Of a DNA stretch of 64,000 nt, positions 1 to 44,715 are shown in pieces. This stretch comes from Candidatus Babeliales bacterium (GTDB lineage Bacteria; Babelota; Babeliae; Babelales; JANWKD01), in the NCBI GenBank assembly GCA_963722075.1, contig CAVRJM010000001.1, forward strand, positions 960,001-1,024,000, in the 5' to 3' direction. The stretch's first letter is position 1, and each line of letters opens with the position of its first letter. Under the pieces are notes generated by a model, which saw nothing but the letters and a program-made list of their open reading frames with translations, was not told the DNA's origin and did not search any database. The position numbers and the translations under genes were made by a program.

Positions 1-1101
1 TTCTATTGGACTTCATTTATAGATTCTCAACAAACAGCAATCAAAAATCTTATTAAAAATAAAAATAATATAAATAAATATGAAAAAATACGAGCAGCTC
101 AAAAAGCTTTAGAGGAACAAATTTTTATAGTAGTAAAACCAACCCATGGCGCCGGCCCATCTCGCCCTGTCACGCAACAAACAACACATGATCTTATTTT
201 TCCGTCAGCGTATTTGGTTAATAATGAAAATTATGCACAGTATGTACCTGCAGAAGTCCCTATAAAAATAGGTAATAATCGCCTCCAACAAGTACTCACT
301 ATAAGTCAATTTTTAACGCCTGATAATTTATTTATCACTACTAATCCACAAGTAATTATAGATCTAATAGGTTTAAGAATGAAAAAATACATTGATTTCC
401 TTCTTAAATTTAATGCCGATTTGCCCCCACAAAATCCGAATATCGAAGACATTGTTATTGGCGGAGGTGCTGCTCCTAGTTGCGCGTACCAAGCATTAAG
501 GAATTGTGCAATTCTAATTGAAGCATTTGATGCACGCTCTAATAATGAATATGATCAAAAAATTTCTCAATTTTATAATTTAAAAAATCTTAACTCTTTG
601 TTTGGTAAACCAGAAAGTAATAAATTAGTAGGAAACCCACAAGAAAATGGTAAATGGAGAGAATTTATTATTAACCGAAGAATTTCTCAACATGCTGATA
701 CAGATAATGGCGATTGGTTATTTGCCCCTGAAATGAAAGTATTAATAAATAACTTATTGAAACGGTTTATAAATACCATTGTGGTACTCGAAGATATGGA
801 TGATTTGAAAAGTAGTGATTCTTATGAAAGACTTAAAAAAGAATTAACTCAGCCTAATAAAATTGGTGGATTTATTCTTTTTCATCCTTCTCCGGATAAT
901 CCTAATGGCCATTGGTTTGCATTAGTAGTTACTACTAATGCTCAAGGCAGAAAAACATTTACTATTGCAGATTCTACCAACACCCCACGCTACCCAAAGG
1001 AAGACGATCAATTCACAAAAAATGAATTCACTAACAAACTTTTAGATTATATTATTACTGATTTTAACAGAGAAGTTTTTAGGAGAGTTACGTGGTTGTA
1101 A
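1..1101 (+). CDS. 5'-truncated protein with C-terminal papain/Josephin-like cysteine protease motifs
   Basis: Frame is open from base 1 to the stop at 1101, so the TTG at 214 is internal. Motifs SCAYQALRN, GHWFALVV, TIADS. Confidence 0.55.
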   Translation, partial: FYWTSFIDSQQTAIKNLIKNKNNINKYEKIRAAQKALEEQIFIVVKPTHGAGPSRPVTQQTTHDLIFPSAYLVNNENYAQYVPAEVPIKIGNNRLQQVLTISQFLTPDNLFITTNPQVIIDLIGLRMKKYIDFLLKFNADLPPQNPNIEDIVIGGGAAPSCAYQALRNCAILIEAFDARSNNEYDQKISQFYNLKNLNSLFGKPESNKLVGNPQENGKWREFIINRRISQHADTDNGDWLFAPEMKVLINNLLKRFINTIVVLEDMDDLKSSDSYERLKKELTQPNKIGGFILFHPSPDNPNGHWFALVVTTNAQGRKTFTIADSTNTPRYPKEDDQFTKNEFTNKLLDYIITDFNREVFRRVTWL

Positions 1102-1188: not shown

Positions 1189-2091
1189 ATGTTTTTAATT
1201 GTTTTTTTATATGCCCTTCTGGCAGGCACATTCACTTTAGGCAAAATGATTCTTGCCTATACGCAACCCATTTTTGTGGTAGGTATGCGCATGTCAATTT
1301 CAGGGGCCATATTACTCCTTTATCATTTTGTAACCAATCGCACCCAATTACGCATTCAAAAACAGCATATAGTACCATTCATAAAAGCAACTATTTTTAC
1401 GATTTATATCCCCTATTTATTGCGCTATTGGGGATTAGTGTATTTAACCCCAAGCAAAGCATGCTTAATATACCATTGCGGTCCTTTTTTAAGTTATTTT
1501 TTCTCGTATATTTTTTATAATGAAGCAGCGCGCTTTAAAAAAATTACTGGATTATGTATTGGATTTGTAGGTCTTTTACCACTCATTATTACTTCTGCAT
1601 CAGCGGCCACACAACAGCATGGTTTATATTTCTTGCCAGAACTGGCTATTTTGATTGCTGTTTCTTGTATGAGTTATGGATGGCTCATTATTCATCAACT
1701 CATTAATCAAGAACAATATCCGCCAAGCATGACCAACGGCATTATTATGTTTGCTGGCGGCATTTGTGCATTGCTTACTTCATTTATTTTTGAAGATCCA
1801 CAGCTTTATATTACTGAATTTATGCCTTTTGCTACATTGCTCGCACTTATCATCATTGTCAGTAATTTAATTTGCCATAATTTATATGGGGCATTACTGC
1901 GTAGCTATACACCCACTATGCTTTCATTCACCAGCTTTTTATCACCGGTTTTTACCGCATTATATGGATGGCTGTTTATGAATGAAGTAATACCATGGTA
2001 TTTTTATTTATCTTCGTTAATTATTTTTAGTGGATTATTTTTATTTTATAGCGATGAGTTACGACAACAACAAGTAAGCAGGGCAGCTTAA
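1189..2091 (+). CDS. DMT/EamA family transporter
   Basis: 300 aa, about 10 hydrophobic helices in two EamA-like repeats. Confidence 0.85.
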   Translation: MFLIVFLYALLAGTFTLGKMILAYTQPIFVVGMRMSISGAILLLYHFVTNRTQLRIQKQHIVPFIKATIFTIYIPYLLRYWGLVYLTPSKACLIYHCGPFLSYFFSYIFYNEAARFKKITGLCIGFVGLLPLIITSASAATQQHGLYFLPELAILIAVSCMSYGWLIIHQLINQEQYPPSMTNGIIMFAGGICALLTSFIFEDPQLYITEFMPFATLLALIIIVSNLICHNLYGALLRSYTPTMLSFTSFLSPVFTALYGWLFMNEVIPWYFYLSSLIIFSGLFLFYSDELRQQQVSRAA

Positions 2092-4017
2092 TTATTGTCC
2101 AAAACCTCCACCGCCACCACTAACAGTTGTTTTACCCTTCATAGCATTACGCCGATTTTTAATTGCATTGAATAGATTGTCCGTAAAGGTATCTTGTTGT
2201 TTTGGTGTTCGCCCTTGGTCTTGTTTAACTTCTTTAAGCGTTCTCCCTGCCCTAATAGAATCAAGTAACGCCTGCCATTTAGGATCAGCTACTTGTTGCG
2301 GGGTTGTTGGGATATTTTTCTTTTCCATTTGAGGCTGTTCTGCAACAATATTTCCTACTGGTTGTAGTAATGCTTCCTGATTTTCGTTTTGGACTGCTAA
2401 CAACTGCTCACGTCGATCACCTAATGCGATTAACCGCCTTGCATCTTCACGCAATACATCATCAGATAGGTCTTTTTCCTGAGTACTGTTATCAATAGCG
2501 TTATAAAGCACGGATGCTTGATTACCCAATTGCGCAGCGCCCTCCACTGCTATTAAAGAAGGATCTGCCGCATAAATAGAACGAATGGCTTCATCAAAAT
2601 CTGTTAACACTGAATCAAACATTTCTGCTGTTTTAACAGGGTCATCAATTTGCTCTTCAATACTAGTAATGTTTGATTCTACCGTATTAGGAATCTGTAC
2701 AATAGAAGCATCAATCCTATGAGCACTTTTATTAGCTTCAGCTATTTTTTGATACTCAGATATGTTTTCTATTGCCCTTCTTCCATTTTCTAATGCGGTA
2801 CGCAAATGGATATCCCATGCTTGCGCTTGTTCAATAGCATTATTACTTCTCTGAAAGAGCTCTATCATATTATTTGTCTCTTCGGGGCTTAAGCTTTCTT
2901 GTATTGCAAGTTTTAGTCCCTGATTTCCAAAATTATCTGCAAACATTTGATAGGTTGAACGTACTAAACTTGCAACATATGCTTGCTCATCTGGCACCAT
3001 TTGTTCAAAATCAGTAAGAGCCAATTGCTCTAATGTAGTTTGAAAATTTTCATATGCTGATGATTGTAAAGCCGCCATTGGGTCTTTTCTAATGTCGGCT
3101 AAAATTGAATCCCGCTGGCTTTTAAAACTATCATACATATACGGAACATCAAAAAAAGTTTTAATGAATTCTCGTGAATATGTCTCCTCTTCTGGCGTTT
3201 GTAATAATTGGTGCAATTCCGCCGGCTTCAATAATTTACCCAGGACATCGTTTATCTCGTTCACCAAAGCATTATTTTCTTGTTTGTTAAGTTCTAATCT
3301 ATCAAGCAAATAGAGCAAATCAACAACTGCTCTTTTTATATCTTTACGAATTGCAGCAACGTCGGTAGTCTTTTTTACTTCCGATAATAAATTTAATGAG
3401 TCTAAGTCAACCCTAACTCGCTCTATAGCCACTGGCATTTCTTGAGCTAATGATTGTTTTTGCCGAGCTGCGTTTAATGGATCTCCGCCCAATTTTCCAT
3501 AGATATCTATTAGGTCTGATCGTAGGGTATTTGCATCACCAATCCCCCATTTAATCAGTAACTTTTTACCCCATTCTTGAAATTTTAGATTTACTCGATC
3601 CAAAAATGATACTTTTGGTCGCCCACCAGCACCGGTAAAAAGACTTTGCACTTCTGCTTCTTGTTTTTGCAATGCAGCAATATCAGCACTTAGTCCATTT
3701 ATCGTTTTAGCATCTGATTTCACATCATTAGAAGCTTGTGGATCACTCTCAATCTTGCTTAATAAATCCTTTATTGTTTGCTCATTACGCTCACCAACCG
3801 GTTTATCAAGCTCCTTATCTAATTCATTTTTTGCATCTTCACCTTCAGGTGATAACCTTTCATCTTGCAGTCTTTGACGTAATTGTGTTTCTGCCGTTGA
3901 ACGTTCAGTTTGTTTACTGGTTATTTCTCTTTCTATCGCTTGTTCAGGACCCTCTCCAGCATAGGTATTCCAACAAAATGAAAAGAGAATTATTAAAAGA
4001 ATGGTATTGAGCTTCAT
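2092..4017 (-). CDS. Secreted helical protein with C-terminal WH2-like and C (central) actin-binding motifs
   Basis: Signal peptide; coiled-coil-like body; ALLDSIRAGRTLKEV...LFNAIKNRRNAM. Confidence 0.6.
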   Translation of the reverse strand: MKLNTILLIILFSFCWNTYAGEGPEQAIEREITSKQTERSTAETQLRQRLQDERLSPEGEDAKNELDKELDKPVGERNEQTIKDLLSKIESDPQASNDVKSDAKTINGLSADIAALQKQEAEVQSLFTGAGGRPKVSFLDRVNLKFQEWGKKLLIKWGIGDANTLRSDLIDIYGKLGGDPLNAARQKQSLAQEMPVAIERVRVDLDSLNLLSEVKKTTDVAAIRKDIKRAVVDLLYLLDRLELNKQENNALVNEINDVLGKLLKPAELHQLLQTPEEETYSREFIKTFFDVPYMYDSFKSQRDSILADIRKDPMAALQSSAYENFQTTLEQLALTDFEQMVPDEQAYVASLVRSTYQMFADNFGNQGLKLAIQESLSPEETNNMIELFQRSNNAIEQAQAWDIHLRTALENGRRAIENISEYQKIAEANKSAHRIDASIVQIPNTVESNITSIEEQIDDPVKTAEMFDSVLTDFDEAIRSIYAADPSLIAVEGAAQLGNQASVLYNAIDNSTQEKDLSDDVLREDARRLIALGDRREQLLAVQNENQEALLQPVGNIVAEQPQMEKKNIPTTPQQVADPKWQALLDSIRAGRTLKEVKQDQGRTPKQQDTFTDNLFNAIKNRRNAMKGKTTVSGGGGGFGQ

Positions 4018-4099
4018 TATTTACCTCATTTCAAACCGTAATTCAATATACTTATTTTACTATTATTTTAATATTAATAGAATATAAATTGCAATGGTT

Positions 4100-5550
4100 T
4101 GTTAGTGCAAAGTGATAAATTCCTCTTATAGCGCAAAGTAAAAAGTTCCGGTTTTTAGGGTAAACTTAATCTTGAAGAAAAAAAGAATAAACCCTAAAAA
4201 TACACCGGAACTTATATGGAATATATTACCATGAATAAGAAAGAACGAGAACAGGCAAAAGTGTTTGCTCAGGTTAAAGAAGGAAAGCTGACAAAGGCAG
4301 AGGCAGCGGAACGCCTGAGGTTTACCAGGCGCTGGGTAAGGGAAAAATATACAAGATACTGCCAGTTAGATGACTTTGGCTTAGTACATGGCAATAGAGG
4401 AAAGGCAAGCCCGAATAGGTGGGATCAAGAGGAGAGGCAACTGTTAATAACCTTGTTGGAAGGCGATTGGCAAGGCTTTGGACCAACCTTTGCAGCTGAA
4501 AAGCTTAATGAGTTACATGGGATACAGGTAAGCCGAGAAGTTGTTAGAAAGGCTATGATCGAAGAGGGTTTATGGCATTCCAGAAAACGAAGTGGTAAAC
4601 ATCGTAAACGACGAGAAAGAAAACTAATGTTTGGCATGATGATTCAGCTTGATGGGTCACCACATGACTGGTTTGAAGGTCGTGCTCCAGAATGTACGCT
4701 ACTTGTTTTCATTGACGATGCTACCAGCCGTATTCTTTGGCTTGAATTTGCTCCATCTGAATCAGTATTTGCTTTAATGGCGGCAACTAAAAATTACATT
4801 GAGAAATATGGAATTCCTCAAACTTTTTACGTAGACCATGGATCTGTTTTTCATGTTAATTTGAATAATAAAGATGATATTAAAAAGACTCAATGGGAGC
4901 GTGCTTGCGAATCTATAGACATTGAGATTGAACATGCCCATAGCCCTCAGGCAAAAGGACGTGTTGAACGATGCAATCAAACCATGCAAGATCGCCTTAT
5001 TAAAGAGATGAGGCTTGCTGGCATATCATCAATAACTGCTGCAAATAATTATCTAAGAGCGAGTAACTTTATCACCAAGCATAATGCTGCATTCCAAGTC
5101 CCTCCAACTCAACAAGGCAATGCACATGCTGATGCTCAATCTTATGACTTAGCCGATGTATTCAGCATGCAAGAGACTCGCATTCTTATGAACGATTTTA
5201 CTATTACTTACCACAATCGCATTTTTCAATTGACTCCGCATCAGAAAACAATTCTACGCCCAAAGGATATTATTGTTGTTAAGGTGCATTTAGATGGAGA
5301 AATTAAACTGTGGATTAGAAAAACAGCGCTTGCTTTTAGTGAAATTTATCAACGAGTAACCCCACAAGTTCAGGAGAAAAAAATAGTAGATTACAAACCA
5401 AGAAAGCCTTCACAGAGCAGTCAACGTTGGGTAAGCGGTTTACCCCCTCGCGAGAGTAGGGTGAAGCCGGCTGCGCCGGCCGTGGAGGCGCTTTAATGAG
5501 AGGAACTTTTTACTTTGCAAAATAGTGGAATTTTTCACGTTGCTTTGACA
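4100..5550 (+). mobile_element. IS1202-type (ISNCY) insertion sequence with 17-bp target site duplication
   Basis: TGT...ACA termini with imperfect ~50-bp inverted repeats; TATAAATTGCAATGGTT duplicated at 4083-4099 and 5551-5567. Confidence 0.9.
4216..5496 (+). CDS. ISNCY/IS1202-family DDE transposase
   Basis: N-terminal HTH, QLDGSPHDWFEGR, IDDATSR, SPQAKGRVER motifs; ORF intact. Confidence 0.92.
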   Translation: MEYITMNKKEREQAKVFAQVKEGKLTKAEAAERLRFTRRWVREKYTRYCQLDDFGLVHGNRGKASPNRWDQEERQLLITLLEGDWQGFGPTFAAEKLNELHGIQVSREVVRKAMIEEGLWHSRKRSGKHRKRRERKLMFGMMIQLDGSPHDWFEGRAPECTLLVFIDDATSRILWLEFAPSESVFALMAATKNYIEKYGIPQTFYVDHGSVFHVNLNNKDDIKKTQWERACESIDIEIEHAHSPQAKGRVERCNQTMQDRLIKEMRLAGISSITAANNYLRASNFITKHNAAFQVPPTQQGNAHADAQSYDLADVFSMQETRILMNDFTITYHNRIFQLTPHQKTILRPKDIIVVKVHLDGEIKLWIRKTALAFSEIYQRVTPQVQEKKIVDYKPRKPSQSSQRWVSGLPPRESRVKPAAPAVEAL

Positions 5551-5582
5551 TATAAATTGCAATGGTTATACAAATAAAAAAA

Positions 5583-10072: not shown

Positions 10073-11272
10073 TTAACTAATTACTGAAGACAAATTAAAC
10101 AATGGAACATACAAGGCAAAAACAAGCGATGTTATTAATAACCCCAAAATAATCATTAAAAGCGGTTGTAATAACGTAGCTAATGTTGTCAAAGTACGAT
10201 TAATCTGCTCTTTATATAACTGTGCTATCTGCTCAAAAACAAATGGCATACATGCCGATTCATGCCCTACTGCCAATAATGCAACTACTTGATCAGGAAA
10301 AAGGCTCTTTTCATTTTTGATAGCAGTTGCAAAAGATGCTCCTTCCAAAATAGCACATTGAACGCGCGCCATAGCCGCTCTTAAATAATAATTGCTGATC
10401 GATTGCTGTGCTATTTCTAACGCAGTAACCAAATGTATGCCTCTTTTAGTTAATAATGCTAAGGACTGAAAATAATAAACGAAAGTGATATGGTGCGTAA
10501 TCGTTTTTAAAATTGGAATAGTTACCATGCCCCATTCTATTGCACGAAGCATTACTTTGCTCCGTTTAAGTACATAACTAATACCGGTTATTATTATTGC
10601 CGCAAGAATACTATAGATCGGGAACCATATGGTTCTTACAAAATCACTGAGTAAAAAAATGAAAGCGGTGCTGGTGGAACATGATTGATTACACGAAGAA
10701 AAGAGCGCATTAAAGCGCGGTACAATAACAACTATGATAATAGTGGCAATAAGAACAAAAAATACAAATGTAATAAATGGCATTAATAGTATTGATCGAA
10801 TTTTTTTCTTAAAATTAAGAAATAATTCTTGGTAAGTACATAATTCTTCTAAAGCCGGCACCATCGTTCCTGATTCCTGCCCCGCTTGAACAATAACAAT
10901 ACTTAATTCATCAAAAACTAAGGGATAATTACGTAACGCATGTGCAAGCGTAATACCATTTTGAATATCGGTTAATACATCTTGAATAATAGCCTTAAAA
11001 TAGTTCTTTTTTATTTGGTGCATAATAAGCAGTAACGCTTGATCTAAATAAATACCCGCAGCTAGTAATAATCGTAATTGTCTAAAAAAGGTAATTTTCT
11101 CAGCTAATGAAATTGTATGAATTAATGGAAATGGCTTTTTTATTGCATAGCGCAGCAACGCAATCTGCTCTTGAAATAATAACGAGGAAAGCTCTTCATG
11201 GGAATGTGCTACAAACACGCCCGAGCGTGTTTTACCCATTATATCTATGCCATACCATTTATATTGCGGCAC
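10073..11272 (-). CDS. Type II secretion / T4P inner membrane platform protein (GspF/PilC)
   Basis: FFRQL, GQESG, second T2SSF repeat, LQPLLM...LYVPLF. Confidence 0.88.
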   Translation of the reverse strand: MPQYKWYGIDIMGKTRSGVFVAHSHEELSSLLFQEQIALLRYAIKKPFPLIHTISLAEKITFFRQLRLLLAAGIYLDQALLLIMHQIKKNYFKAIIQDVLTDIQNGITLAHALRNYPLVFDELSIVIVQAGQESGTMVPALEELCTYQELFLNFKKKIRSILLMPFITFVFFVLIATIIIVVIVPRFNALFSSCNQSCSTSTAFIFLLSDFVRTIWFPIYSILAAIIITGISYVLKRSKVMLRAIEWGMVTIPILKTITHHITFVYYFQSLALLTKRGIHLVTALEIAQQSISNYYLRAAMARVQCAILEGASFATAIKNEKSLFPDQVVALLAVGHESACMPFVFEQIAQLYKEQINRTLTTLATLLQPLLMIILGLLITSLVFALYVPLFNLSSVIS

Positions 11273-13345: not shown

Positions 13346-13393
13346 TTAATTACTGTTAATACATATTTTATGGATAAAAATAGAGGTTATTTC

Positions 13394-15595
13394 ATGAAGT
13401 TAGTTAAAAAATTATTACTTGCCGCTTTCGCGCTTCCCTTATTAAACGCACAAGGTATGGAACCTGATTCAGTTGATATCGATTCCAGCACAATAGCGTT
13501 ATTTAAAACCAATGATAAGCAAAATGTTGCTATAGAGTTTAAATATATTGCTCATCAATCTAAAACACTGGTAAATCAGATTAAAGCTGCTGGTACGCTG
13601 AATGAAGCAACTGAAATCCCTTGCTCAAAAGAAACATTTATAATACTTCAAGCCGCATTGCAAGAAGCTTATATCCATAATTGTATTAATGATGAGTTTT
13701 TTGAAAGTCTTACATCTTTAAATCCAGAGCAACTTATTAATATAGCTAATGCTGCCAGTTGGGCTGATTTCCAATCACTTATAAAAACCGTAATAGAAAT
13801 AATTGGGCAGCGTTGCTTAAAGCATGAGAGTTACTTACCGCACGAGATATTAGAATCTTATCATTCATTAGGGTTAAATGATGTTTTAACAGAATTGATA
13901 AGAAATCTGCTTGATAAAAAAACATCTCAGAATGAACCAGCAGAAAATGAAGCTCAAGTAACATTAGTTGCCAATGATGGCAAAGAATTTAAAATATTAA
14001 AATCAATAGCCAGCCATTTCAAGACAATTCAACATATTATGGGCGATTATGATAATGAGACTGAAGCAATTCCTTTGCCTAATGTGGCTTCAGAAACATT
14101 ACAAACATTAATTTCCATAGCTAAGAACATAAACCAAGAAAATCCCGAACCAATAAGCATTATGGAAGGATTAATACCACAAGATACTCAAAAAATTATC
14201 GATCTTTTTACTGCTGCTGATTATTTAGGCAGTGAATATATATGCAATGGCCTTATTTCCATTATTGAAAAAAAATTGAATGATTCTGAATTACTTAATG
14301 ATTATGATAAAATTGCTTGGCTCTTACAAAACAGCACTCCATCCCTTATTCAGAAATTAGACCTCACTACTTTTTTTACTTCACTAATTCCTGATCAAAT
14401 TACCGCAACTACATTGACTGGCCATAGTTACTTTATTGCTTCAGTAGCTTTTAGCCCGAATAATAAATTACTTGCAACGGGATCTGATCAAACTATTAAA
14501 ATATGGGATGTTGTTGATGGCTCTTGCATAAAAACCTTAAAGGGCCGTAATCTTATTGATCTTATAGCATTTAGCCCTAACGGACAGATACTTGCTACTG
14601 GTTCGACTTGGAAAAAAATCGTTCAACTATGGAATGTTGTTAGTGGTTCTTGCCTACACACCTTAACTGTGCATGATGATTCTGATCTTAGTTGTTTTGC
14701 CTTTAGCCCAGATGGTACTCTCCTTGCAACTGATTCCGATGATAACATTAAACTATGGAATGTTATTGATGGTTCAAGCTTATTTACTTTAACCGATGTT
14801 TGTTTACACATCAGTTGTCTTGCTTTTAGCCCCGATGGCAATCTTCTTGTAACGAGCTCTGATAAAAAGATTAAATTATGGAATGTTGTTGATGGCTCTT
14901 GCATAAACACCTTAAAGGGCCATAAGAAAGATATTAAAAATCTTGCATTTAGTCCAAATGGTAAGATACTTGCCTCTATTTCAAGAGATAAAGTTATTAA
15001 ATTATGGGATGCTACTTCATTTGACTGCTTGCATACATTAGTTAGTCCTCCTACTAACAATAATACTCAAAGGTATATCTGCCGTGACCATATAGTTTTT
15101 AGTCCAGATGGTAATCTTCTGGCAACTGTTGTGGCTGGAGATTCAATGCTTAACATATGGGACGTGCATAAGGGCTCTCATCTATATACATTAACCGGCC
15201 ATACTCATCTCATAAGCGGGTTAACCTTTAGCCATAATGGTAATAAAATTATTACTGCATCTTGGGATAAAACAGTTAAATTATGGGACATTAAAACCGG
15301 TGTTTGTTTAAAGACCTTAACAGAGCATACCCAAGAAGTTCGATGCCTTACTCTAAGTCCTAATGGCCACCTACTTGCTACTGGTTCCAAAGATAATACT
15401 ATTAAATTATGGCGTCTTTTTGATGAAGAACTTTTAAATTTATCTTGTGAACAACTCTTATTATTAAAATTTTATTATGAAGCTCATAAACATACTATTC
15501 CTTTTGAATGTTCTGACCAACCCTACTTAAAAGAACTACATGATAGTTATCCATCCTCAATTCGTATATGGATTAATAAATTAACTAAGAAATGA
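13394..15595 (+). CDS. Secreted Skp1/BTB-like x2 + WD40 repeat protein (paralog 1)
   Basis: GAGG RBS before MKLVKK; DGKEFKI...IPLPNV...LFTAADYL; about 8 AFSPDG/IKLWD repeats. Confidence 0.85.
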   Translation: MKLVKKLLLAAFALPLLNAQGMEPDSVDIDSSTIALFKTNDKQNVAIEFKYIAHQSKTLVNQIKAAGTLNEATEIPCSKETFIILQAALQEAYIHNCINDEFFESLTSLNPEQLINIANAASWADFQSLIKTVIEIIGQRCLKHESYLPHEILESYHSLGLNDVLTELIRNLLDKKTSQNEPAENEAQVTLVANDGKEFKILKSIASHFKTIQHIMGDYDNETEAIPLPNVASETLQTLISIAKNINQENPEPISIMEGLIPQDTQKIIDLFTAADYLGSEYICNGLISIIEKKLNDSELLNDYDKIAWLLQNSTPSLIQKLDLTTFFTSLIPDQITATTLTGHSYFIASVAFSPNNKLLATGSDQTIKIWDVVDGSCIKTLKGRNLIDLIAFSPNGQILATGSTWKKIVQLWNVVSGSCLHTLTVHDDSDLSCFAFSPDGTLLATDSDDNIKLWNVIDGSSLFTLTDVCLHISCLAFSPDGNLLVTSSDKKIKLWNVVDGSCINTLKGHKKDIKNLAFSPNGKILASISRDKVIKLWDATSFDCLHTLVSPPTNNNTQRYICRDHIVFSPDGNLLATVVAGDSMLNIWDVHKGSHLYTLTGHTHLISGLTFSHNGNKIITASWDKTVKLWDIKTGVCLKTLTEHTQEVRCLTLSPNGHLLATGSKDNTIKLWRLFDEELLNLSCEQLLLLKFYYEAHKHTIPFECSDQPYLKELHDSYPSSIRIWINKLTKK

Positions 15596-15616
15596 AGAGA
15601 ATAATGGAGTTATAAA

Positions 15617-17773
15617 ATGAAATTAATTAAAAAATTATTATTCCTCATGTGTGCACTTACTATAGCACAGAGCTATGGTATGAAGCGTAAAGCATCAGAA
15701 ATAGGATCTACATCAAAAACTAGTAATAAAAAAATAGAATATGATTCTGAAGTTATTGTTACATTTAAAACTACTGATGATCAATCTATACCGGTAAAAT
15801 TACACTATATTTCTGAGTATTCTAGAACATTATATGATATGTTTATAGATGCAAACGATTCAAATGAACCTATTCCAGTACCATTTTCATCAGAACCATT
15901 CACTTTTATCAGTGTTGCATTAGAAACAGCTTCCCACGGATCTTTTGATGCAAAGTTTGATGAAAAACTTGAATCGTTGAGCATATCTCAACTTATTGAT
16001 ATTGCTAATGCTGCTTCTTGGACCGATTTCCAACTTCTTATAGAATCAGTAGTAAAAGCACTTACTAATCGCTGCTTAAAAAATCCTTGTGCTCAAATAT
16101 TACGCAAATATAAAAAAAAAGATTTAGCTGATGCGCTACTTACTATAATTACTACTAACCTTATTGTTTTAGCCACTAATGATGGTAAAACATTTACCAT
16201 TTCATGCGATGAAATAACCGATTTTAAAGTTATTCAAAAAATGTTTAATGATCTTGAAAACAATAGTGAACCAATTCCACTACCTAATATTTCTTCCCCC
16301 ATATTAGAAGTACTTTTATATTGCAACAAGCATACAAGTAATTCGCAATCCATTATGAAGGAACTAATGGCTTATGATTTGAAACCTCTCTTTGACCTTT
16401 TTAATGCTGCTGATTATTTAGATCATGAAAAACTAGTCCATTTATTTGCCAGTATTATCGGTAAAAAGTTAAGTGATCCTGCATCATTACATGATTATGA
16501 GGACGTTGCTTGGGTTTTACAAAATAGCTCACCGTTACTTATTGAAAACCTACATAACGCATCATTCTTTAATTCATTACTTCAGCTGGTCTGTATACCA
16601 GATAAAATTAGTGAAACTACCCTGACAAATGACGGAGAATATTTCCAAATTGCTTTTGGTCCTGGTGATCAAACGCTTATAGCGAATGGTCACAGAAATG
16701 TTACGGTATGGGATACCAATTCTAATACCTGGATAAATACATTACCTAGGTTAAACAACGATTATCATTCCCAAGTGATCTTGTGCCCTAGTGCACAAAT
16801 CGCTGCTATTACTGGCCCCAGTGTTATTAAACTATATGATGTTATTACTAATAACTGTATCCTCACCTTAACAAACACTCCCGCTTGGGTTAAATATTTT
16901 GACTTTAGTCCTGATGGGAAAACCTTTGCTTTTTCTGACGACTATACTACCCAACTATGGAGTACACATACCGGTGAACATCTCCATACTTTAAGTTCTA
17001 CTGATTCAAATCATTTTTTTGCCTTTAGCCCTGATGGAAAAATCATTGCTAATTGTACTAAGAAAGCTATCAAATTATGGAATGTTACGACTGGAAGCTG
17101 TATCCATACTTTAGAAATTTCAGATAAATATATTGATCTTATTGTCGATTTAAAATTTAGTCCAGATGGGCAAACTTTAGCTACTTCCTCTTGGGATACC
17201 ACTACTAAATTATGGAATGTCATTACTGGAGAATGTATCTATACATTGCAAGGCCATAGTGGGGGAATCGAGGATATTGCCTTCAGTCCTAATGGCCAAA
17301 TCCTTGCTACTAGTTCTGTTGATCAAACTATTAAATTATGGGATGTTACTACTGGTGAATGTCTTCAAACGTTAAATATATTCAAAAAAGCGAATCGTAT
17401 TACCTTTAGCCCTGACAGTTGCATACTTGCTAGTTCTTCAAATAACATTATTCAATTATGGGATACTATTACTGGTAACTATATTCACACGATAAGCACA
17501 CATACTCAAACAATTCAATCTCTTGCCTTTAGTTCTAACAACCACATACTCGCTAGCGCATCAAATAGTACCATTAAATTACATCCTATCAGAGATCAAG
17601 AATTGTTAAATACGTATTGTAGTCTACCGCTAGAACAATTATTATTGCTTGCTTTCTGCCATAATGCTCATAGCCACCATATACCTTTTAATTTCTCTCA
17701 GCATGCATATTTAAATGAAATTTATGAAAGTTGCCCGGACACTGTTCGAACACGGATCCCGGATTTAAAATAG
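15617..17773 (+). CDS. Secreted Skp1/BTB-like x2 + WD40 repeat protein (paralog 2)
   Basis: DGKTFTI...PIPLPNI...LFNAADYL; WD40 repeats. Confidence 0.85.
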   Translation: MKLIKKLLFLMCALTIAQSYGMKRKASEIGSTSKTSNKKIEYDSEVIVTFKTTDDQSIPVKLHYISEYSRTLYDMFIDANDSNEPIPVPFSSEPFTFISVALETASHGSFDAKFDEKLESLSISQLIDIANAASWTDFQLLIESVVKALTNRCLKNPCAQILRKYKKKDLADALLTIITTNLIVLATNDGKTFTISCDEITDFKVIQKMFNDLENNSEPIPLPNISSPILEVLLYCNKHTSNSQSIMKELMAYDLKPLFDLFNAADYLDHEKLVHLFASIIGKKLSDPASLHDYEDVAWVLQNSSPLLIENLHNASFFNSLLQLVCIPDKISETTLTNDGEYFQIAFGPGDQTLIANGHRNVTVWDTNSNTWINTLPRLNNDYHSQVILCPSAQIAAITGPSVIKLYDVITNNCILTLTNTPAWVKYFDFSPDGKTFAFSDDYTTQLWSTHTGEHLHTLSSTDSNHFFAFSPDGKIIANCTKKAIKLWNVTTGSCIHTLEISDKYIDLIVDLKFSPDGQTLATSSWDTTTKLWNVITGECIYTLQGHSGGIEDIAFSPNGQILATSSVDQTIKLWDVTTGECLQTLNIFKKANRITFSPDSCILASSSNNIIQLWDTITGNYIHTISTHTQTIQSLAFSSNNHILASASNSTIKLHPIRDQELLNTYCSLPLEQLLLLAFCHNAHSHHIPFNFSQHAYLNEIYESCPDTVRTRIPDLK

Positions 17774-17782
17774 AGGTTTTAA

Positions 17783-20461
17783 ATGAAATTAATTAAAAAA
17801 TTATTACTCCTCATATGTGCGCTTACTATAGCAAATGGCTATGGCATGAAGCGTAAAGCATCAGAAATAGGATCTACATCAAAAACTAGTAATAAAAAAA
17901 TAGAATATGATTCCGAAGTTATTGTTAGATTTAAAACTACTGATGATCAACCGGTATCGGTAAAATTATATTATATTTCTAAGTATTCTAAAACATTATA
18001 TGATATGTATATAGATGCTGACGATTCAAATGAACCTATTCCCGTACCATTTTCATCAGAACCATTCACTTTTATCGCTGATGCGTTTCAAAGGGTTATT
18101 AACTCAAACTTATTTGAAAATAAACTTTATGAAAAAATTCAAGAGTTAACCATAGATCAATGCATTAACCTTGCAAATGCCGCTTGCTGGGCTGATTTTC
18201 AACTACTTATTGAAGCTATAGTAGAAATTATTACTCATCGTTGCTTATATAGCGAAAATCTTTCACCACAAGAAGTGTTAGATGAATATCAAAAACGGGA
18301 ATTAAATGATGCTTTACTCTTATTAATCAAAAATAAATTAAATCCCATTGAAAAACCATCTTTTACCATTACTTTCAAAACTGATGACGATCAACTAATT
18401 GAGGTGAATTCTATTTATTTCGTTGGTCAAGCCGACACGTTGCTTCAATTATTTAGACAACGGGGTGGGCAACCAGTTGCCATTCCATTTTCAATGGAAA
18501 CTTTTACTTTCATCATAGAAGCACTGCAACATAGCTATAGTACACAATCATTTGATGGCGAATTTTGTAAAAAATGGGAATTATTAACTCACAACCAATT
18601 GATCACTATTGCTAATGCCGCTCACTGCTATAATATTGAATCATTATTACAAAAAATAATAACAATAATAACGCATCGATGTTTAACTAGTGATGAATGC
18701 TTACACCCCCAGCTTGCATTGCAATCATATTATGAAAATGGCTTAGCTTCTGAGCTAATCCCATTAATCCAAAATGAACTTAATACAATCATCTCATCTG
18801 AAGAAAACACCATTGTTTTAATTACCAACGATCATCAAGAAATCGCTATTTGCCCATCTCAAGCACGTTCTTTTAAAACAATTCAAAATACAATAGATTC
18901 TTATGAAAATACAAATGAACCTATTTTTCTGCCCAATATTTCTCAAAACATATTGATGCTTCTTCTTCAAGCGCTCAAAAATATTACATATCAACACATA
19001 AATTCTTCAGTAGTCATAGAAGGTCTTGCAAATCAAACTGTTGAAACACTTATCGCTCTTTTTAATGCTGCAGATTATTTAGGAAGTGATTACGTATGCA
19101 AAGCACTTATGGCTACTATTGAAAAAAAATTGGATGAGCCTAGTTTTTTAGATAATTATGATAGTATCGCCTGGTTGTTACAAAGTAATTTTGATTTTTT
19201 TAATGAAACATTACAGAGCGGTTCATTTTTTTATTCATTATTACAACTAGTAGCTAAACCCCAAACAAACACACCAGCCAATATAATAAATCATGGTACA
19301 ACAATAAAAGGTATGAAATTTAGCCCAGATGGCCAACTTCTTGCAACTCTTACTGACAAAACCGTAACTATTTACAATTCTCATGATGGTTCAATTCTAG
19401 ATACATTAGAAGGTTTTTCTCTGGAGTACCCATCTTTATTATTTAGTCCCAATGGGCAATTTATTGTGGTACATGATAAAGGACCTTATGGAACTAGACT
19501 TATTATTAAAATATATGATGTTATCAATAAATCTTGTGTATACACATTACAATGCAAGAGCAATGTTAGAAATACCGTTTTCAGTCCTGATAGCCAAAAT
19601 CTTATTATATATTATTCTCATGGCACTATTGAATTAGTTAATATCATTAATAAATCTTATGATACTGTCGAAACTAACAACAAAAAATTTATGTGCACCG
19701 CATTTAGCCCCGATGCAACTATTTTTGCTATGACTTCAGATAATTTCATACAATTGTGGGATATTTATGAGTACCGTTATTTACCAATTTCAACTGGGCA
19801 TAAGGAACGAGTTAAGCATTTAGCATTTAGTCCTGATGGAAAATTCCTAGTAACAATCTTTATCGGTAACGATATCAAAATTTGGGATGTTTCTGATGGT
19901 TCTTGCTTACGTACAATAACCCATAATAATAGTTATATTAACCATGTTGTCTTTAGTCCCGATGGGGAATTTTTTGCTACATGCGCTGACAATGGCACTA
20001 TTACCTTATGGACCAATAATGGTGACCGGGTAAAAACATTGCTTGCTCATGATCAGCCAGTTTCATTCATTGCATTTAGTCCTTATGGGCAAATTCTTGT
20101 CTCTCAATCTGCTAAAACCGCTAAAATATGGGATATTAATAATGGATCTGGCATTTCAGAATATCATATCAGTGAAAAAGCTTTTATTAATTTTTTAGCC
20201 TTAAGTCCTGACGACCAACAACTCGCTATCAATTCTTCCGATGGAACCACTGCGTTATATCCCCTTTATGATCATGATCTGGCAACATCGTTTATGGCGT
20301 TACCTTTTGAACAATTGCTACTACTCAAACTATGTTATAATGCTTATAGGTATACTATTCCATTCAATTTTTCTGGCCATCCGTATTTAAAAGAAGTGTA
20401 TGATAGTTGTCCTGATATCGTCCAAACATGGATTAATAAATTAATACCACCACAAAAATAG
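17783..20461 (+). CDS. Secreted Skp1/BTB-like x3 + WD40 repeat protein (paralog 3)
   Basis: Three modules ending LANAACWADF / IANAAHCYNI / LFNAADYL; WD40 repeats. Confidence 0.85.
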   Translation: MKLIKKLLLLICALTIANGYGMKRKASEIGSTSKTSNKKIEYDSEVIVRFKTTDDQPVSVKLYYISKYSKTLYDMYIDADDSNEPIPVPFSSEPFTFIADAFQRVINSNLFENKLYEKIQELTIDQCINLANAACWADFQLLIEAIVEIITHRCLYSENLSPQEVLDEYQKRELNDALLLLIKNKLNPIEKPSFTITFKTDDDQLIEVNSIYFVGQADTLLQLFRQRGGQPVAIPFSMETFTFIIEALQHSYSTQSFDGEFCKKWELLTHNQLITIANAAHCYNIESLLQKIITIITHRCLTSDECLHPQLALQSYYENGLASELIPLIQNELNTIISSEENTIVLITNDHQEIAICPSQARSFKTIQNTIDSYENTNEPIFLPNISQNILMLLLQALKNITYQHINSSVVIEGLANQTVETLIALFNAADYLGSDYVCKALMATIEKKLDEPSFLDNYDSIAWLLQSNFDFFNETLQSGSFFYSLLQLVAKPQTNTPANIINHGTTIKGMKFSPDGQLLATLTDKTVTIYNSHDGSILDTLEGFSLEYPSLLFSPNGQFIVVHDKGPYGTRLIIKIYDVINKSCVYTLQCKSNVRNTVFSPDSQNLIIYYSHGTIELVNIINKSYDTVETNNKKFMCTAFSPDATIFAMTSDNFIQLWDIYEYRYLPISTGHKERVKHLAFSPDGKFLVTIFIGNDIKIWDVSDGSCLRTITHNNSYINHVVFSPDGEFFATCADNGTITLWTNNGDRVKTLLAHDQPVSFIAFSPYGQILVSQSAKTAKIWDINNGSGISEYHISEKAFINFLALSPDDQQLAINSSDGTTALYPLYDHDLATSFMALPFEQLLLLKLCYNAYRYTIPFNFSGHPYLKEVYDSCPDIVQTWINKLIPPQK

Positions 20462-20471
20462 AGGTTATAAA

Positions 20472-22682
20472 ATGAAATTAATTAAAAAAATACTAGTACT
20501 TGCTTGCGTACTTCCGTTGTTCAGTACTTATTGTATGGAAAACTCGACCGTTCTATGCAAAACGAGCGATGAGAAGTATGTTCGCCTTCCCGTAGAATAT
20601 CTTAATAAATCACGAACCTTCTATAATGATTTTATTGAAGCAAGCAAAAAAACAGATAAACAATCAATTCCAACGATTAACGTATTTTGCTCTAAAGAAA
20701 CATTCATATTGCTCATGGAAGCGCTTAAGATAGCTTATCTAAAGGATTCTTTAGATAAATCATTTTGTGAAAAGCTTTCAGCATTAACTACTCCTACTCA
20801 AGGGCTTATTGATCTTGCCAACGCCGCCTGCTACGCCGATTTCCAACTGCTTATAGCAACAATGATAGAAATCATAGGTCAGCGATGCTTGGATCATGAA
20901 TCTTATTTACCAGATGAAATGTTACAATCTTATAAAAAAATGGGCTTAACGGATGAATTTGTTGCATTAGTTATCCGCTATTTAAACTCGCCTGCACTTA
21001 ATAGATCATCGATGGAAACAGAACCACAAACTATTACCATTTTTACCAACGATGATGAAACATTCACTATTCCTATAGCAATAGCAGCTCATTTTAAAAT
21101 TATTCAAAATATTCACCCCTTTAATGAAGAGTTAACAAGACCAATTGAATTACCAAATATTAATTCAACGGAATTAGAAAAGCTTCTTCATCTTCTTAAC
21201 AAGCTTCTGCAATCTGATGAAGAACAATCGGATCTTATTAATGAATTACTATCTTATGATATTAAGGATGTTATTACTCTTTTTAACGCGGCAGATTATT
21301 TAAATAGCGATACATTATGTGAATTGTTACTCAGTGTTATCGAGCAAAAATTAAAAAATCCTGAACTTTTATATGATAATGACACCATTGCATGGATACT
21401 ACAAAATCAGCAAAATAGAACCATACTTATTAACCATCTGATTCAAACGCCTTTTATTAAGGGATTACTCAATTTTATTTGCAAATCAGATAAAATTGAA
21501 CCTGTTGCGCTCAGAGGATATAGCGGCCCTTACCGTATTGCTTTTAGTCCTGATGAAAAAATCCTTGCTACTACTACTTCTCGTACAATAGTACTTTGGG
21601 ATACCGCCACGGTTAAAGCCCTGCGTACCCTAGATATGGGTAGAACTTTTAGTCTTGCCTTTAGCCCAGATGGGAAATTTCTTGCTACCGGTTCAGATGG
21701 CAAAAATGCTATTAAATTATGGAATCCTCATACTGGCGACTGCATCCATACCTTCCAAAAAGCGAATGGTCATTTCACGCGTCTTACCTTCAGCCCTAAT
21801 GGGAAAATACTTGCCTCTGTTTGCGCTTCTGATTCCTTTCAGCTTTGGAACACAAGTACATTTCGTTGCCTTTATAAGGCAACCAATATTAACCGAATTC
21901 CTGGTGTAGCTTTTAGCCCTGATGGAAAATTTTTAGCCGCCTGTTCTGAAAATATTCTTAAAATATGGGATACAAATACTTTTGACTGTATTTATACTCT
22001 TGATGAGCATACTGCGCAAATTAATCGTTTTGCATTTAGTCCACAGGGCCATTTTGTTGCTACCTGTTCTGACGATACCACTATTAAACTGTGGGATGTT
22101 GATACCGGTAGATGTGTACGAACTTTTAATGATACCGATAAAGTTACCTGTTTAACCTTTAGCCCCGATGAGAAAATACTTGTCACCGCCTCTTCTGATC
22201 ATTATCGTAAACTCTGGGATGTACATACTGGCAAATGCTTAAAAGCAACTTACGGTCCTCAATTTTGCGTTCTTGCCTTTAGTCCACATGGCCTATTTCT
22301 TGCAGGTTCATCCAAGGATAGTGTTAGTTTATGGGATACGAGTACTAATTACTCATTAATTCATAATGATAGCCATAGAGAAGTAGATGCCCTCCGGTTT
22401 AGCCCTAATGGTCAATTTCTTGCTACTGCATCTTTTGGTGAGGTCTTTTTACGAAGAATGGTTGATACGGCAAAAATAGAAGAATATAAATATTTACCAC
22501 CAGAACAATTGTTGTTACTTGCCTTTTGCTATAATGCGTTTGCAAACAAAATTACTTTTGATTTCTCTTGGCACCCCTATTTAAACGAGGTATATAATAA
22601 CTGTTCTTCTGCAGTACGTGATCTGATTACCCAAAAGTTAATGCCAACTGGTTACCAACCAAGCTCATGCTTACTTAGTTAA
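20472..22682 (+). CDS. Secreted Skp1/BTB-like x2 + WD40 repeat protein with C-terminal CaaX (paralog 4)
   Basis: IELPNI...LFNAADYL; WD40 repeats; ends CLLS. Confidence 0.85.
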   Translation: MKLIKKILVLACVLPLFSTYCMENSTVLCKTSDEKYVRLPVEYLNKSRTFYNDFIEASKKTDKQSIPTINVFCSKETFILLMEALKIAYLKDSLDKSFCEKLSALTTPTQGLIDLANAACYADFQLLIATMIEIIGQRCLDHESYLPDEMLQSYKKMGLTDEFVALVIRYLNSPALNRSSMETEPQTITIFTNDDETFTIPIAIAAHFKIIQNIHPFNEELTRPIELPNINSTELEKLLHLLNKLLQSDEEQSDLINELLSYDIKDVITLFNAADYLNSDTLCELLLSVIEQKLKNPELLYDNDTIAWILQNQQNRTILINHLIQTPFIKGLLNFICKSDKIEPVALRGYSGPYRIAFSPDEKILATTTSRTIVLWDTATVKALRTLDMGRTFSLAFSPDGKFLATGSDGKNAIKLWNPHTGDCIHTFQKANGHFTRLTFSPNGKILASVCASDSFQLWNTSTFRCLYKATNINRIPGVAFSPDGKFLAACSENILKIWDTNTFDCIYTLDEHTAQINRFAFSPQGHFVATCSDDTTIKLWDVDTGRCVRTFNDTDKVTCLTFSPDEKILVTASSDHYRKLWDVHTGKCLKATYGPQFCVLAFSPHGLFLAGSSKDSVSLWDTSTNYSLIHNDSHREVDALRFSPNGQFLATASFGEVFLRRMVDTAKIEEYKYLPPEQLLLLAFCYNAFANKITFDFSWHPYLNEVYNNCSSAVRDLITQKLMPTGYQPSSCLLS

Positions 22683-41488: not shown

Positions 41489-44218
41489 TTAGAATTTCCA
41501 ACGCATTTCTACTTCACCACCATAATCACCCCGTTCATCACGCATACCGCGCAGAGTGATGTCATCAGATAAGAAATACTCAACTTCTAATTTAATATCT
41601 TCAGATAAGCTAAAATTTTTCTGTATCATGCCACGCAACTGATCGTTAACATCAATTTCGATGGTCCCTCGAAAACCACCACGTCCTGATTGATCAGAAA
41701 AACCTGGTATAAAACGGATATGCTTAAACTGTTCTAATAACCCTTTAAAATACCCTTCCAATTTAGTCGCTGATTGCTCCGGACCAAAAATGATATTTTG
41801 CAACTTTTGCATAATCATTGCTGGCATCGCCAGACTTAATGATCCTTCTTCAGTTCCCGCCAGTAATAGGGTAATAATCTGTTCTTCAGTTAAGGGTGGC
41901 GTTGATTCAAAACTAATATGCGGTTGCTGTAACGATCCTTCACAACGCAATGTTATTTGATATTTTCTAATCTTGCCTTTTGCAATAAGCTCAACTAAAG
42001 GATCGTATAATTGATGCGGTAAAAAATGAATACCACAATGCGTAATAGAAAGCGGCCGATAGGGAAATGCTAATGTTCCTTTTTCTAAATATAAACTTCC
42101 CGTGCATTCTGGGTGTTGTAATCTTCCTTGTATAGCAACCGATCCTTGCACTGACGTATCTAAAAAGGATGTTTTCACTTCAATAGGATTTTTCGTTTCA
42201 ATGAATAAATTTAACCAACATTGTTCCTTTAAATCAGTTCGAGAATCAGTTAAATCATTAGTAACTGGTTTACCAAATTGAGCAAAGATATTTTTTTTAA
42301 AATAACCACGATCGATAATTATATTACCCGTTAATTCATTTTTCTTATTTTCATCATATACATACACAATAGTGCCGGAAAAAACAGCAAACAACTCTTT
42401 TTGTAAGGTTAAAAACGCTTTTTTTATAAGACATGGTGCATAAATATAATAGGGAGTTCCATTATTGCGCAAAAGTATATGTGCTCGCGAACAATATAAT
42501 GATCCTTTATCAAGCTCTAAAAGACAATCGTTAAGTACAATTTTTTTAGCTTTAAAATCTGCATGCATTACCGCTTTCAAATTTCTAATCAAACTATAGG
42601 TACCGGGTATGCGTATATTCCCTTCAATTAGTTCTAAAGAAGATTCTACTGATGATTCTTTATAGGTACCTTTTATATGTAAAATGCCTTGGCCCGGAAC
42701 TTTATAATTAAAAAGATGATTGGTAATTTCTTGACCAATACTGAAATCAATAACCCCATTAAACCCTTCTTGATCGCTCATAATTTGTATCAGCGGCTGT
42801 TCTTTTTTTTCATGTACCGTAAAATCTGTTAATGCAAAATGTGGCTGTAAAGTAAAAGAGCCCTTATATTTTTTTTTATTAAATTCACCTTTAATAGAAC
42901 AATCTTTAAAAGTTCCATCAATGGTCCCCTTTATACCATACGCAATTGATTTTGTTATCATATCTCGAGCATGCAATGTGTAGGATCCTGTATAGATCCC
43001 ATCCAACAAAGAAAGCTCAAACCATAATGCTTTTTTTTCAATAACTAATTCATTATGTATGGCAATATCAGCTACATTAGTAGCCTTAAGATAGCCAGTA
43101 CTGGCTTTTTCATCATAGTAACCACCAATATGAGCATCTTTTACATCATCAAAAAAATGATCCGCATGCATCACCCATTTTTGTTTATTATAATCAATAG
43201 CTATTTCTAAAGAGCCTAAAGGAATATTACACAAAGCGATATCGGTACATGTTAAGGATCCATTGAGCGTATCGGATAATTGTATGGTAAAATGACTTGT
43301 AATAGTCCCATTTAATACATCAGGTGCAACAAAAGGTATGAATGATGTTAAATAATGAGCTGGTATTGCTCCAATAACGGTACCATGCACGGCATGCGCT
43401 GTTTTAATCCAATTATAAAACATAAGATGCCACTGCTGATCAGAAGAATTAATAAAGAGCTGACCATTATTATTGCTCCAATGACCTTCAATAATATACT
43501 TTTGATCGTCAATGGGTAAATGCGGGAATAATAAGGTACTATACATATCGAGGCTAATTATATTATTTTTCCAATCGGGAATATCTAAATCAAAATGCCC
43601 CGAAAGAGCAGTACAATATTTCTTGCTATCATAAGTAACTTCACCTTCCATAAAATAAATTTGTAATTTTAACCATCCTTGTACATTGCTATAAGCACCA
43701 TTAAACAGGGTGCTATACGTCATGCTATTAGCACAATTATGTAAAAGAAAAGATCCATTATTAATGGTTAATGTTCTGAGTGTCGCAGGAAATCCTTCTG
43801 CACCAGCAATAAAATTTTGCAAATGCCCCACAATTGCTATTGATGAATGATCAAAGGTAGAATGGGAATCAAGATCATTTAAGGTAACTTCTATATCAAA
43901 TTTATTTTGAAATAAAAATGAAAGCCATGAAAAATGTATCTTAAAATAAGGTGCACGCCATTGCCATTGCCCCTCAGGATCCGTAACACATACTTCCCTA
44001 AGCTCTATGGTACCGGTGAGAACATTCACCCGTGTTACCGTTCCTTCTAAATAACTTTTAAAAGACGTTAAAAAAATCTTCTTTATTTGCAACTCAACAA
44101 AATGAATTACTTGGGGATCAAATTGAAGCAAGAGAAGCGCTATAATCACCGAAGCAAGAAATGATAAAAGCAGAGATCTAACGCATCTAAAGAACACATT
44201 CATGGCATAAGAACCCAA
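41489..44218 (-). CDS. tamB: TamB translocation and assembly module protein
   Basis: N-terminal TM, beta-rich body, P.ISFESTPPLTEEQII.LL.G, C-terminal Phe. Confidence 0.8.
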   Translation of the reverse strand: MGSYAMNVFFRCVRSLLLSFLASVIIALLLLQFDPQVIHFVELQIKKIFLTSFKSYLEGTVTRVNVLTGTIELREVCVTDPEGQWQWRAPYFKIHFSWLSFLFQNKFDIEVTLNDLDSHSTFDHSSIAIVGHLQNFIAGAEGFPATLRTLTINNGSFLLHNCANSMTYSTLFNGAYSNVQGWLKLQIYFMEGEVTYDSKKYCTALSGHFDLDIPDWKNNIISLDMYSTLLFPHLPIDDQKYIIEGHWSNNNGQLFINSSDQQWHLMFYNWIKTAHAVHGTVIGAIPAHYLTSFIPFVAPDVLNGTITSHFTIQLSDTLNGSLTCTDIALCNIPLGSLEIAIDYNKQKWVMHADHFFDDVKDAHIGGYYDEKASTGYLKATNVADIAIHNELVIEKKALWFELSLLDGIYTGSYTLHARDMITKSIAYGIKGTIDGTFKDCSIKGEFNKKKYKGSFTLQPHFALTDFTVHEKKEQPLIQIMSDQEGFNGVIDFSIGQEITNHLFNYKVPGQGILHIKGTYKESSVESSLELIEGNIRIPGTYSLIRNLKAVMHADFKAKKIVLNDCLLELDKGSLYCSRAHILLRNNGTPYYIYAPCLIKKAFLTLQKELFAVFSGTIVYVYDENKKNELTGNIIIDRGYFKKNIFAQFGKPVTNDLTDSRTDLKEQCWLNLFIETKNPIEVKTSFLDTSVQGSVAIQGRLQHPECTGSLYLEKGTLAFPYRPLSITHCGIHFLPHQLYDPLVELIAKGKIRKYQITLRCEGSLQQPHISFESTPPLTEEQIITLLLAGTEEGSLSLAMPAMIMQKLQNIIFGPEQSATKLEGYFKGLLEQFKHIRFIPGFSDQSGRGGFRGTIEIDVNDQLRGMIQKNFSLSEDIKLEVEYFLSDDITLRGMRDERGDYGGEVEMRWKF

Positions 44219-44703: not shown

Positions 44704-44715
44704 TTTTTTTCCCTT

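Follow-up and report, generated by a model that had tools for sequence, protein, structure and literature searches.

What can a WASP-type actin-binding tail do on a bacterial protein once its acidic end has gone? The question is raised by P0001, a 641-aa protein read as an ORF at 2092..4017 on the minus strand of a 64,000-nucleotide stretch of Candidatus Babeliales DNA (the whole of which is called the window below). Direct mimicry of the WH2-C-acidic (WCA) module has been described for few bacteria, and RickA is the standard case. A sequence-only reading had placed a WH2 motif and a C helix at the C-terminus of this ORF, where the residues that it quoted are indeed found. The known Babelota are described as intracellular parasites of protists (PMC12172432, PMC6561590, PMC4378268). 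A literature search, covering mostly non-subscription journals, found nothing on Babelota with WH2, Arp2, nucleation-promoting or actin effectors; the Babelota papers examined discuss ankyrin repeats and secretion, and in four of them a passage on host actin was looked for and not found.

The P0001 Gene, Its Locus and Its Product

P0001 has a Shine-Dalgarno-like GAGGT 5' of its ATG (4023..4027, minus strand, by sequence reading), and a promoter scan, with 10 sites against 13.2 expected, was uninformative. The genome measures 1.47 Mb. The SecA encoded in the window shares 80% identity with a Ca. Babeliales record and 69% with a TM6 one, as compared with at most 64% for the other 78 loci. Convergent to P0001 lies an EamA transporter gene (1189..2091, plus strand; Pfam EamA, E 1.9e-28), which is a synteny marker outside the effector. 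On the other side, 82 bp 5' of the start codon, a polymorphic insertion sequence (IS) occupies 4100..5550 on the plus strand; its ends read TGT...ACA, and direct repeats of 17 bp flank it at 4083-4099 and 5551-5567. By the length of the repeat and by its ends it may belong to the IS1202 group. The contig (C1) carries two further copies elsewhere, one full (99.9%) and one split. A contig of soil run X1 departs from the window at 4099 and resumes at 5568 onward; since it joins these two positions, an empty-site allele of the IS exists. No RNA data set was listed among those containing the locus; runs X2-X5, with small shares, were left out of the habitat reading.

Other loci of the window were recognised by eye. 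An ORF open at its 5' end (1-1101, plus strand) has no Pfam match and carries a Cys in 'SCAYQA', then 'HWFALVV' and 'IADS', in which it resembles a permuted Ulp1/C48-like peptidase such as that described in Babela (PMC4378268). Four tandem signal-peptide proteins (13370-22682, plus strand), with Skp1/BTB-like and then WD40-like repeats, possibly mimic host ubiquitin-ligase adaptors. Genes of GspF/PilC-like, pseudopilin-like and GspE/PilB-like type lie at 10073-11272 and 44200-46446, and a GspF-like gene is found 5-10 kb from the locus of the P0001 family in genomes G110, G097, G106 and G109.

The protein itself begins with a predicted Sec-type signal peptide (aa 1-20; 3958..4017, minus strand), called by an in-house hydropathy rule and not by SignalP. 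The 10-residue hydropathy mean reaches 3.2 at the N-terminus, the best 19-mer further on scores 0.9, and the rule finds no transmembrane stretch after the signal peptide. As 376 of the 836 ORFs of this genome pass it, the rule is unspecific here; signal peptides have been reported for 44% in Chromulinavorax (PMC6561590). The body (aa 21-575; 2293..3957, minus strand) is predicted to be all-helical by an AlphaFold2 model from a 14-sequence alignment (mean pLDDT 76, pTM 0.56), with intramolecular helical bundles and no long exposed coiled coil, while a heptad scan marks one heptad-like stretch (aa 94-134). The same model places helices at the WH2 and C motifs and leaves the end disordered. Fold searches, run with the whole model, gave generic helical repeats only in Foldseek (best E 6.6e-4, TM 0.14) and no usable match in the ESM Atlas; in VIA-align the best match was a Get4-type solenoid over aa 138-274 (Z 11.4, rmsd 2.9, 120 aligned), a Z within the range that the tool rates common for helical models. 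No fold or function is assigned to the body; Pfam gave no family above cut-off and NCBIfam no match.

A WH2-C Tail with a Blunted Acidic End

The tail reads in the order of a WASP-type module. Its WH2 motif (aa 579-598; 2224..2283, minus strand) consists of an amphipathic helix followed by LKEV and shares 12 of 19 residues with that of the closest relative, P0002. A W-to-C linker (2191..2223, minus strand) leads to the C (central/connector) helix (aa 610-626; 2140..2190, minus strand), which ends in RR-x-A, here RR-N-A. The distance from LKEV to the RR pair is 28 residues, as compared with 25-35 in 16 other modules; the RR pair is invariant in all seven family tails, and the C helix is predicted to be helical (pLDDT 93 at aa 611-620, AlphaFold2).

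What follows departs from the pattern. Of the acidic (A) region, what remains (aa 627-641; 2095..2139, minus strand) has a Gly run and no acid: after the RR pair come 18 residues with no D or E, two K and no Trp, at a net charge of +2 versus -7 to -9 in six relatives. The third residue from the end is a Phe, at the position of the Trp in P0002 and, as an aromatic, in the place that Trp takes in mammalian WASP-family members (PMC7112243). With 4 of 15 residues identical to P0002 and in register, the A region has been substituted rather than deleted. Polyproline before the WH2 motif is likewise lacking in P0001, where the longest Pro run is 1; P0004, P0008 and P0015 have such runs, which reach five residues in P0004 and P0008.

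A frameshift or assembly error behind the missing A region can be ruled out. No other frame of P0001 holds a rescuing acidic tail, a second database record, one residue different, carries the same tail, and in run X1, which is possibly not independent from the assembly, a contig of low depth spans 1988-2143 and differs at one synonymous site. The absence of the acidic Trp-containing tail, pointed out from the sequence alone, is therefore genuine.

Resemblance to Eukaryotic WCA Modules

The Pfam WH2 model (PF02205), proposed with the sequence-only reading as a check, gives a weak match: at 12.4 bits for the whole protein and 15.4 bits for the last 72 aa it stays below the 23.1 cut-off. In a phmmer search of the 72-aa tail against the PDB, all four matches at E<=10 were WH2 proteins, three N-WASP and one Spire (best E 3.3e-4). 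Within the genome, a strict WH2 pattern picked out P0001 alone among 1349 ORFs and a C pattern three of 1349, P0001 included; no second, complete WCA protein was found there, and the P0001 tail is its sole WCA-like module.

A profile named A5 was built from 14 WCA modules on scaffolds outside the family. It gives P0001 32.0 bits (E 1.2e-8), the next ORF of the genome 8.2, and the tail 38.2, which none of 5000 shuffles reached (best 10.3); these scores are partly circular because the 14 modules had been obtained via a profile containing the P0001 tail. Free of that circularity is the search of the PDB with A5, which is made of bacterial sequences only. Nearly all of its 21 matches are WH2/WCA proteins, and in its alignment with N-WASP (E 1.1e-16) W, C and A are all in register; WAVE1 is matched at E 1.5e-4. 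The family tail profile (A4) retrieves the full-length N-WASP chain (E 8.7e-8), and both profiles lay the Babelota C helix on that of N-WASP. The description of P0001 as a WASP-like WH2 and C tail on a (predicted) secreted protein is thus borne out, with homologues that keep both motifs. WASH sequences were absent from the PDB hit lists of A5 and A4, which speak neither for nor against a likeness to WASH.

Relatives of P0001 and the Derived Loss of the Acidic End

P0001 belongs to a family confined to Babeliales, whose members are helical and start with signal-peptide-like sequences; a profile search of 1.84 billion representatives returned 17 of them at E<=1e-3. The full WH2-C-acidic-Trp tail is present in the two relatives nearest to P0001, at 60% and 35% identity; in P0002, at 60%, the WH2 motif, the C helix, seven acids and a Trp third from the end all stand in register. 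Full ends of this kind are found in P0002, P0004, P0008 and P0010, P0012 ends with nine acids and a Phe, and the partial P0015 has C and A. Conservation in homologues, the point on which the sequence-only reading had agreed to be judged, turned out in its favour, as they keep WH2 and C and add the acidic-Trp end. The remaining members are without W and C, several of them keeping a terminal Trp or Tyr; both motifs are missing altogether in P0003, P0009, P0014, P0017, P0018, P0020 and P0021. We also note that P0003, P0009, P0011, P0013, P0014, P0017 and P0019 have no WH2/C and finish in a short Gly/acidic end with Trp or Tyr, which possibly makes these ends A-only Arp2/3 tethers, or else an unrelated terminal signal.

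A tree of 21 bodies, with tails removed and fragments excluded, gave (P0010,(P0001,P0002)) with both nodes at 100/100. Because P0001 nests among the full-tailed P0002 and P0010, the loss of the acidic-Trp end on its branch is derived. That branch is the longer one (0.38 vs 0.19 for P0002), and identity between the two proteins amounts to 62% in the body, 63% in WH2, 41% (7/17) in C and 27% in the A region. Two word-index protein searches returned P0002 alone, and pattern scans of genomes and metagenome contigs confirmed as relatives none of 291 and 196 candidate stretches.

The family is present in 5 of 261 Babelota genomes, often as tandem paralogues adjoining the same EamA gene, and an EamA orthologue abuts family genes in G110, G109, G097 and G106. 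Most of the 30 EamA loci compared, among the matches listed, have other neighbours; the link is local, not phylum-wide. Tandem arrays of two to four paralogues with differing tails stand beside EamA at L044:8294-16765 (G110), L045:1061-5134 (G097) and L047:1152-5056 (G109). The G097 array looks as though the module had been divided between two proteins: a WH2-like motif lies near the end of one gene, and the next gene ends in C and an acidic Trp.

WCA Modules across Babelota and Control Genomes

Similar modules are found well beyond the family. The profile of the seven family tails found matches in 31 of 261 Babelota genomes (E<=0.05); many of these are in unrelated proteins that have proline-rich stretches and end in a complete WCA. 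At E<=0.001, A5 matched 37 of the 261 genomes in 9 of 21 families, a count in which 14 genomes had supplied the training set. We inspected 38 modules, from 36 of these 37 genomes (G218 lay below the script threshold) and from G168; classes were assigned by eye, the automatic W/C/A classes being unreliable for G082, G058, G059, G149 and G020. Complete W-C-acidic-Trp modules make up 18 of the 38, 13 of them training members. Eight have W and C without the acidic Trp (G000, G043, G122, G160, G119, G123, G124, G168), four are C-A only (G136, G227, G058, G059) and the rest are partial. In G043, G122, G160 and G119 the W+C end without acidic Trp sits on different scaffolds, with no frame that would rescue it.

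Once the module is masked, BLAST sorts the 38 carriers into 32 clusters, which is a maximum because some carriers are partial or of low complexity; by sequence comparison, WCA modules appear to sit on about 30 unrelated scaffolds in Babelota. A signal-peptide-like start is seen in 30 of the 34 carriers with a closed 5' end, under a rule similar but not identical to that passed by 376 of 836 ORFs in the P0001 genome. Within the genus of the window, the W-C-acidic-Trp module of G108, complete and proline-rich, is carried by an unrelated scaffold (L064:1495-2673), and the genome's own family member (L010) is without WH2 and acidic-Trp end; even inside one genus, then, the module changes scaffold. 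Candidate tandem-WH2 nucleators, with a signal peptide and several WH2-like repeats, were observed at L077 (G044), L063 (G232) and L070 (G003).

A5 matched none of 261 genomes of a Patescibacteria-group control and none of five mixed genomes. It did match 9 of 301 Alphaproteobacteria genomes, all of 0.6-2.5 Mb (G659, G758, G590, G547, G651, G725, G757, G530 and G802, with up to four modules per genome). Most of the ten loci concerned (L208-L217) are real W-C-acidic modules, several with proline-rich stretches, and the seven module proteins scanned had no NCBIfam match. As these small-genome Alphaproteobacteria carry it, the WCA module is not unique to Babelota; judging from genome size, the carriers are presumably endosymbionts.

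Comparison with Known Actin Nucleators

P0001 resembles Rickettsia RickA in its bacterial origin, the intracellular setting in a host, the C-terminal WH2-C(-A) order and an unrelated N-terminal body (bioRxiv 10.1101/2025.08.14.669974, PMC11077975). According to the same sources, RickA combines a proline-rich region with an acidic motif and is without a Sec signal peptide; P0001, by contrast, starts like a signal-peptide protein and has neither a polyproline run nor an acidic-Trp end. Searches with its body returned Babeliales-type relatives only (17 representatives, none of which bears a name). Because of the signal peptide and the lineage-restricted body, orthology with RickA, compared here by description, is unlikely.

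With N-WASP/WASP and WAVE it shares W and C, aligned in register through the profiles. Unlike class I nucleation-promoting factors (NPFs), it has no acidic region, a Phe for the Trp, no WH1, WHD or GBD and no proline-rich domain, and unlike the eukaryotic ones it bears a predicted bacterial export signal. Of the sequence features of class I NPFs, the WH2 motif and the C helix at normal spacing are present in P0001, and the acidic near-terminal Trp and the proline-rich region are missing, for which reason we do not file it as a class I NPF; P0004 and P0008 have all four. The nearest match in design is the engineered N-WASP VVC, or A-less N-WASP, in which W and C are kept and A is gone (PMC3095617); VVC is artificial and has two WH2 motifs, whereas P0001 is natural and has one.

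VopL/VopF and BimA are WH2-bearing secreted bacterial proteins that are active without an acidic motif (PMC9569871), as P0001 would be. These proteins of Vibrio and Burkholderia pseudomallei, respectively, are described as carrying two or three WH2 motifs together with a domain proven to mediate oligomerisation. P0001 differs from them in having one WH2 motif followed by a true C helix and in descending from a full WCA. Having one WH2 motif, it is not a tandem-WH2 nucleator of the VopL/VopF or Spire type.

A Proposed Mechanism and Its Alternatives

Chances seem to us evenly balanced that P0001 is a RickA-like, WASP-type actin effector with a weakened Arp2/3 arm, which would act as an attenuated, clustering-dependent activator and as an actin tether. 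Sec export and then a type II secretion system would bring the protein to the bacterial surface or beyond, where its WH2 motif would bind G-actin of the protist host and the C helix could still dock on Arp2/Arp3. The Trp pockets of ArpC1 and Arp3 would receive just the neutral Phe tail, at a cost in affinity, and the helical body might position or cluster the tail on the bacterium or its vacuole. Instead of strong branching, the outcome would be a thin local actin coat. P0002, P0010, P0004 and P0008 would represent the ancestral form, a full-strength RickA-like NPF, and the full-tailed relatives are predicted to be RickA-like Arp2/3 activators.

Data on N-WASP show what a module without A can do. 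Clustered VVC gathered actin in 43.2% of cells, as compared with 97.2% for VVCA and none for VV, and Arp2/3 in 10.7% versus 69.4% for VVCA; N-WASP without A supported Shigella tails (all as given in PMC3095617). On the other side, the same paper notes that a WASP fragment without A had shown weak activity before, which was put down to dimerisation through GST and thus to an artefact. The conserved Trp of the acidic part matters for Arp2/3 binding and fills pockets in ArpC1 and Arp3 (PMC7274804). Some natural WASP-family proteins have Phe for this Trp; if an aromatic residue of any kind is enough is described as an open question (PMC3298513).

We infer every functional step of this scheme, and delivery is the weakest. 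The genome encodes two secretins and gave no match to the VirB4 and FHIPEP families, in line with type II secretion as the only system detected in Babela (PMC4378268). Babela multiplies within a vacuole (PMC4378268), so that a type II substrate would not automatically reach the host cytosol. The sub-threshold Pfam score, the lack of a polyproline run and the unspecific signal peptide also count against a weakened activator, and the longer branch and a C helix less conserved than the body would fit decay as well.

Such decay would mean that the Arp2/3 function has been abandoned, the acidic end going first and WH2 and C following, and that the body would be the reason for keeping the protein, should it be kept at all. 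The twofold branch length (0.38 vs 0.19) and the falling identity to P0002 (body 62%, C 41%, A 27%) agree with this, as do the many family members without W and C altogether and the IS 82 bp upstream. Against it, WH2 is conserved like the body, RR-N-A, the spacing and the aromatic third from the end are all retained, and an intact ORF holds the only WCA-like module of the genome; moreover, one X1 contig is without the IS, and another has the same blunted tail. We consider a decaying vestige unlikely.

Equally doubtful is the second idea of the sequence-only reading, a binder that works independently of Arp2/3: its WH2 and C helices would both bind actin and withhold monomers or, given an oligomeric body, nucleate or extend filaments in the manner of VopL/BimA. 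Ends with W and C but no acidic Trp do recur on other scaffolds, the C domain of Scar1 binds actin weakly (cited in PMC3771948), clustered WASP-family proteins are polymerases (PMC5753033), and the body has the heptad-like stretch at aa 94-134. P0001, however, has a single WH2 motif where VopL/VopF are described with three and BimA with at least two, two clustered WH2 motifs of N-WASP alone gathered no actin (PMC3095617), and the model has intramolecular bundles instead of a long exposed coiled coil.

From the sequence alone, P0001 had been taken for either an atypical modulator of Arp2/3 or a competitor. The first fits best. As a competitive inhibitor, it would occupy Arp2/3 or drain actin from the host NPFs, much as injected soluble WCA and CA fragments sequester Arp2/3 (PMC3771948), and C+A-only modules do exist in other Babelota (G136, G227, G058, G059); since the part lost in P0001 holds the Trp important for Arp2/3 binding, the anchor for the ArpC1/Arp3 pockets (PMC7274804), it should compete poorly, and we rate this as highly improbable. 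That the resemblance arose by chance, or that the tail has a bacterial role unrelated to actin, is scarcely credible: short helical motifs may mislead and the Pfam score is sub-threshold, but the relatives have W, C, A and Trp in order, the N-WASP match is in register, none of the 261 control-phylum genomes gave a match, and none of the 5000 shuffles reached the real score.

Concluding Remarks

The single blunted P0001 is of moderate interest, and the phylum-wide WCA repertoire is the larger result. Because complete WCA tails occur on many unrelated proteins across the lineage, Babelota likely manipulate the actin of their hosts. We lean slightly towards the view that they have repeatedly grafted eukaryote-type WCA onto some 30 exported scaffolds, as W-C-A, W-C and C-A, and so may possess a toolkit of activators, attenuated forms and inhibitors in which P0001 would be a tuned W-C; together with the alphaproteobacterial modules, this would make Arp2/3 hijacking common in protist endosymbionts. 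In that case, such hijacking would extend beyond Rickettsia and a handful of animal pathogens. The pair of P0001 and P0002, 60% identical and without and with the acidic-Trp end, offers a natural experiment on the need for the A region in Arp2/3 activation. Should the motifs work, a group of intracellular bacteria that is among the most widespread would steer host actin at entry, vacuole shaping or exit, a role unrecognised so far, and protists would be a setting in which WASP mimicry arose many times.
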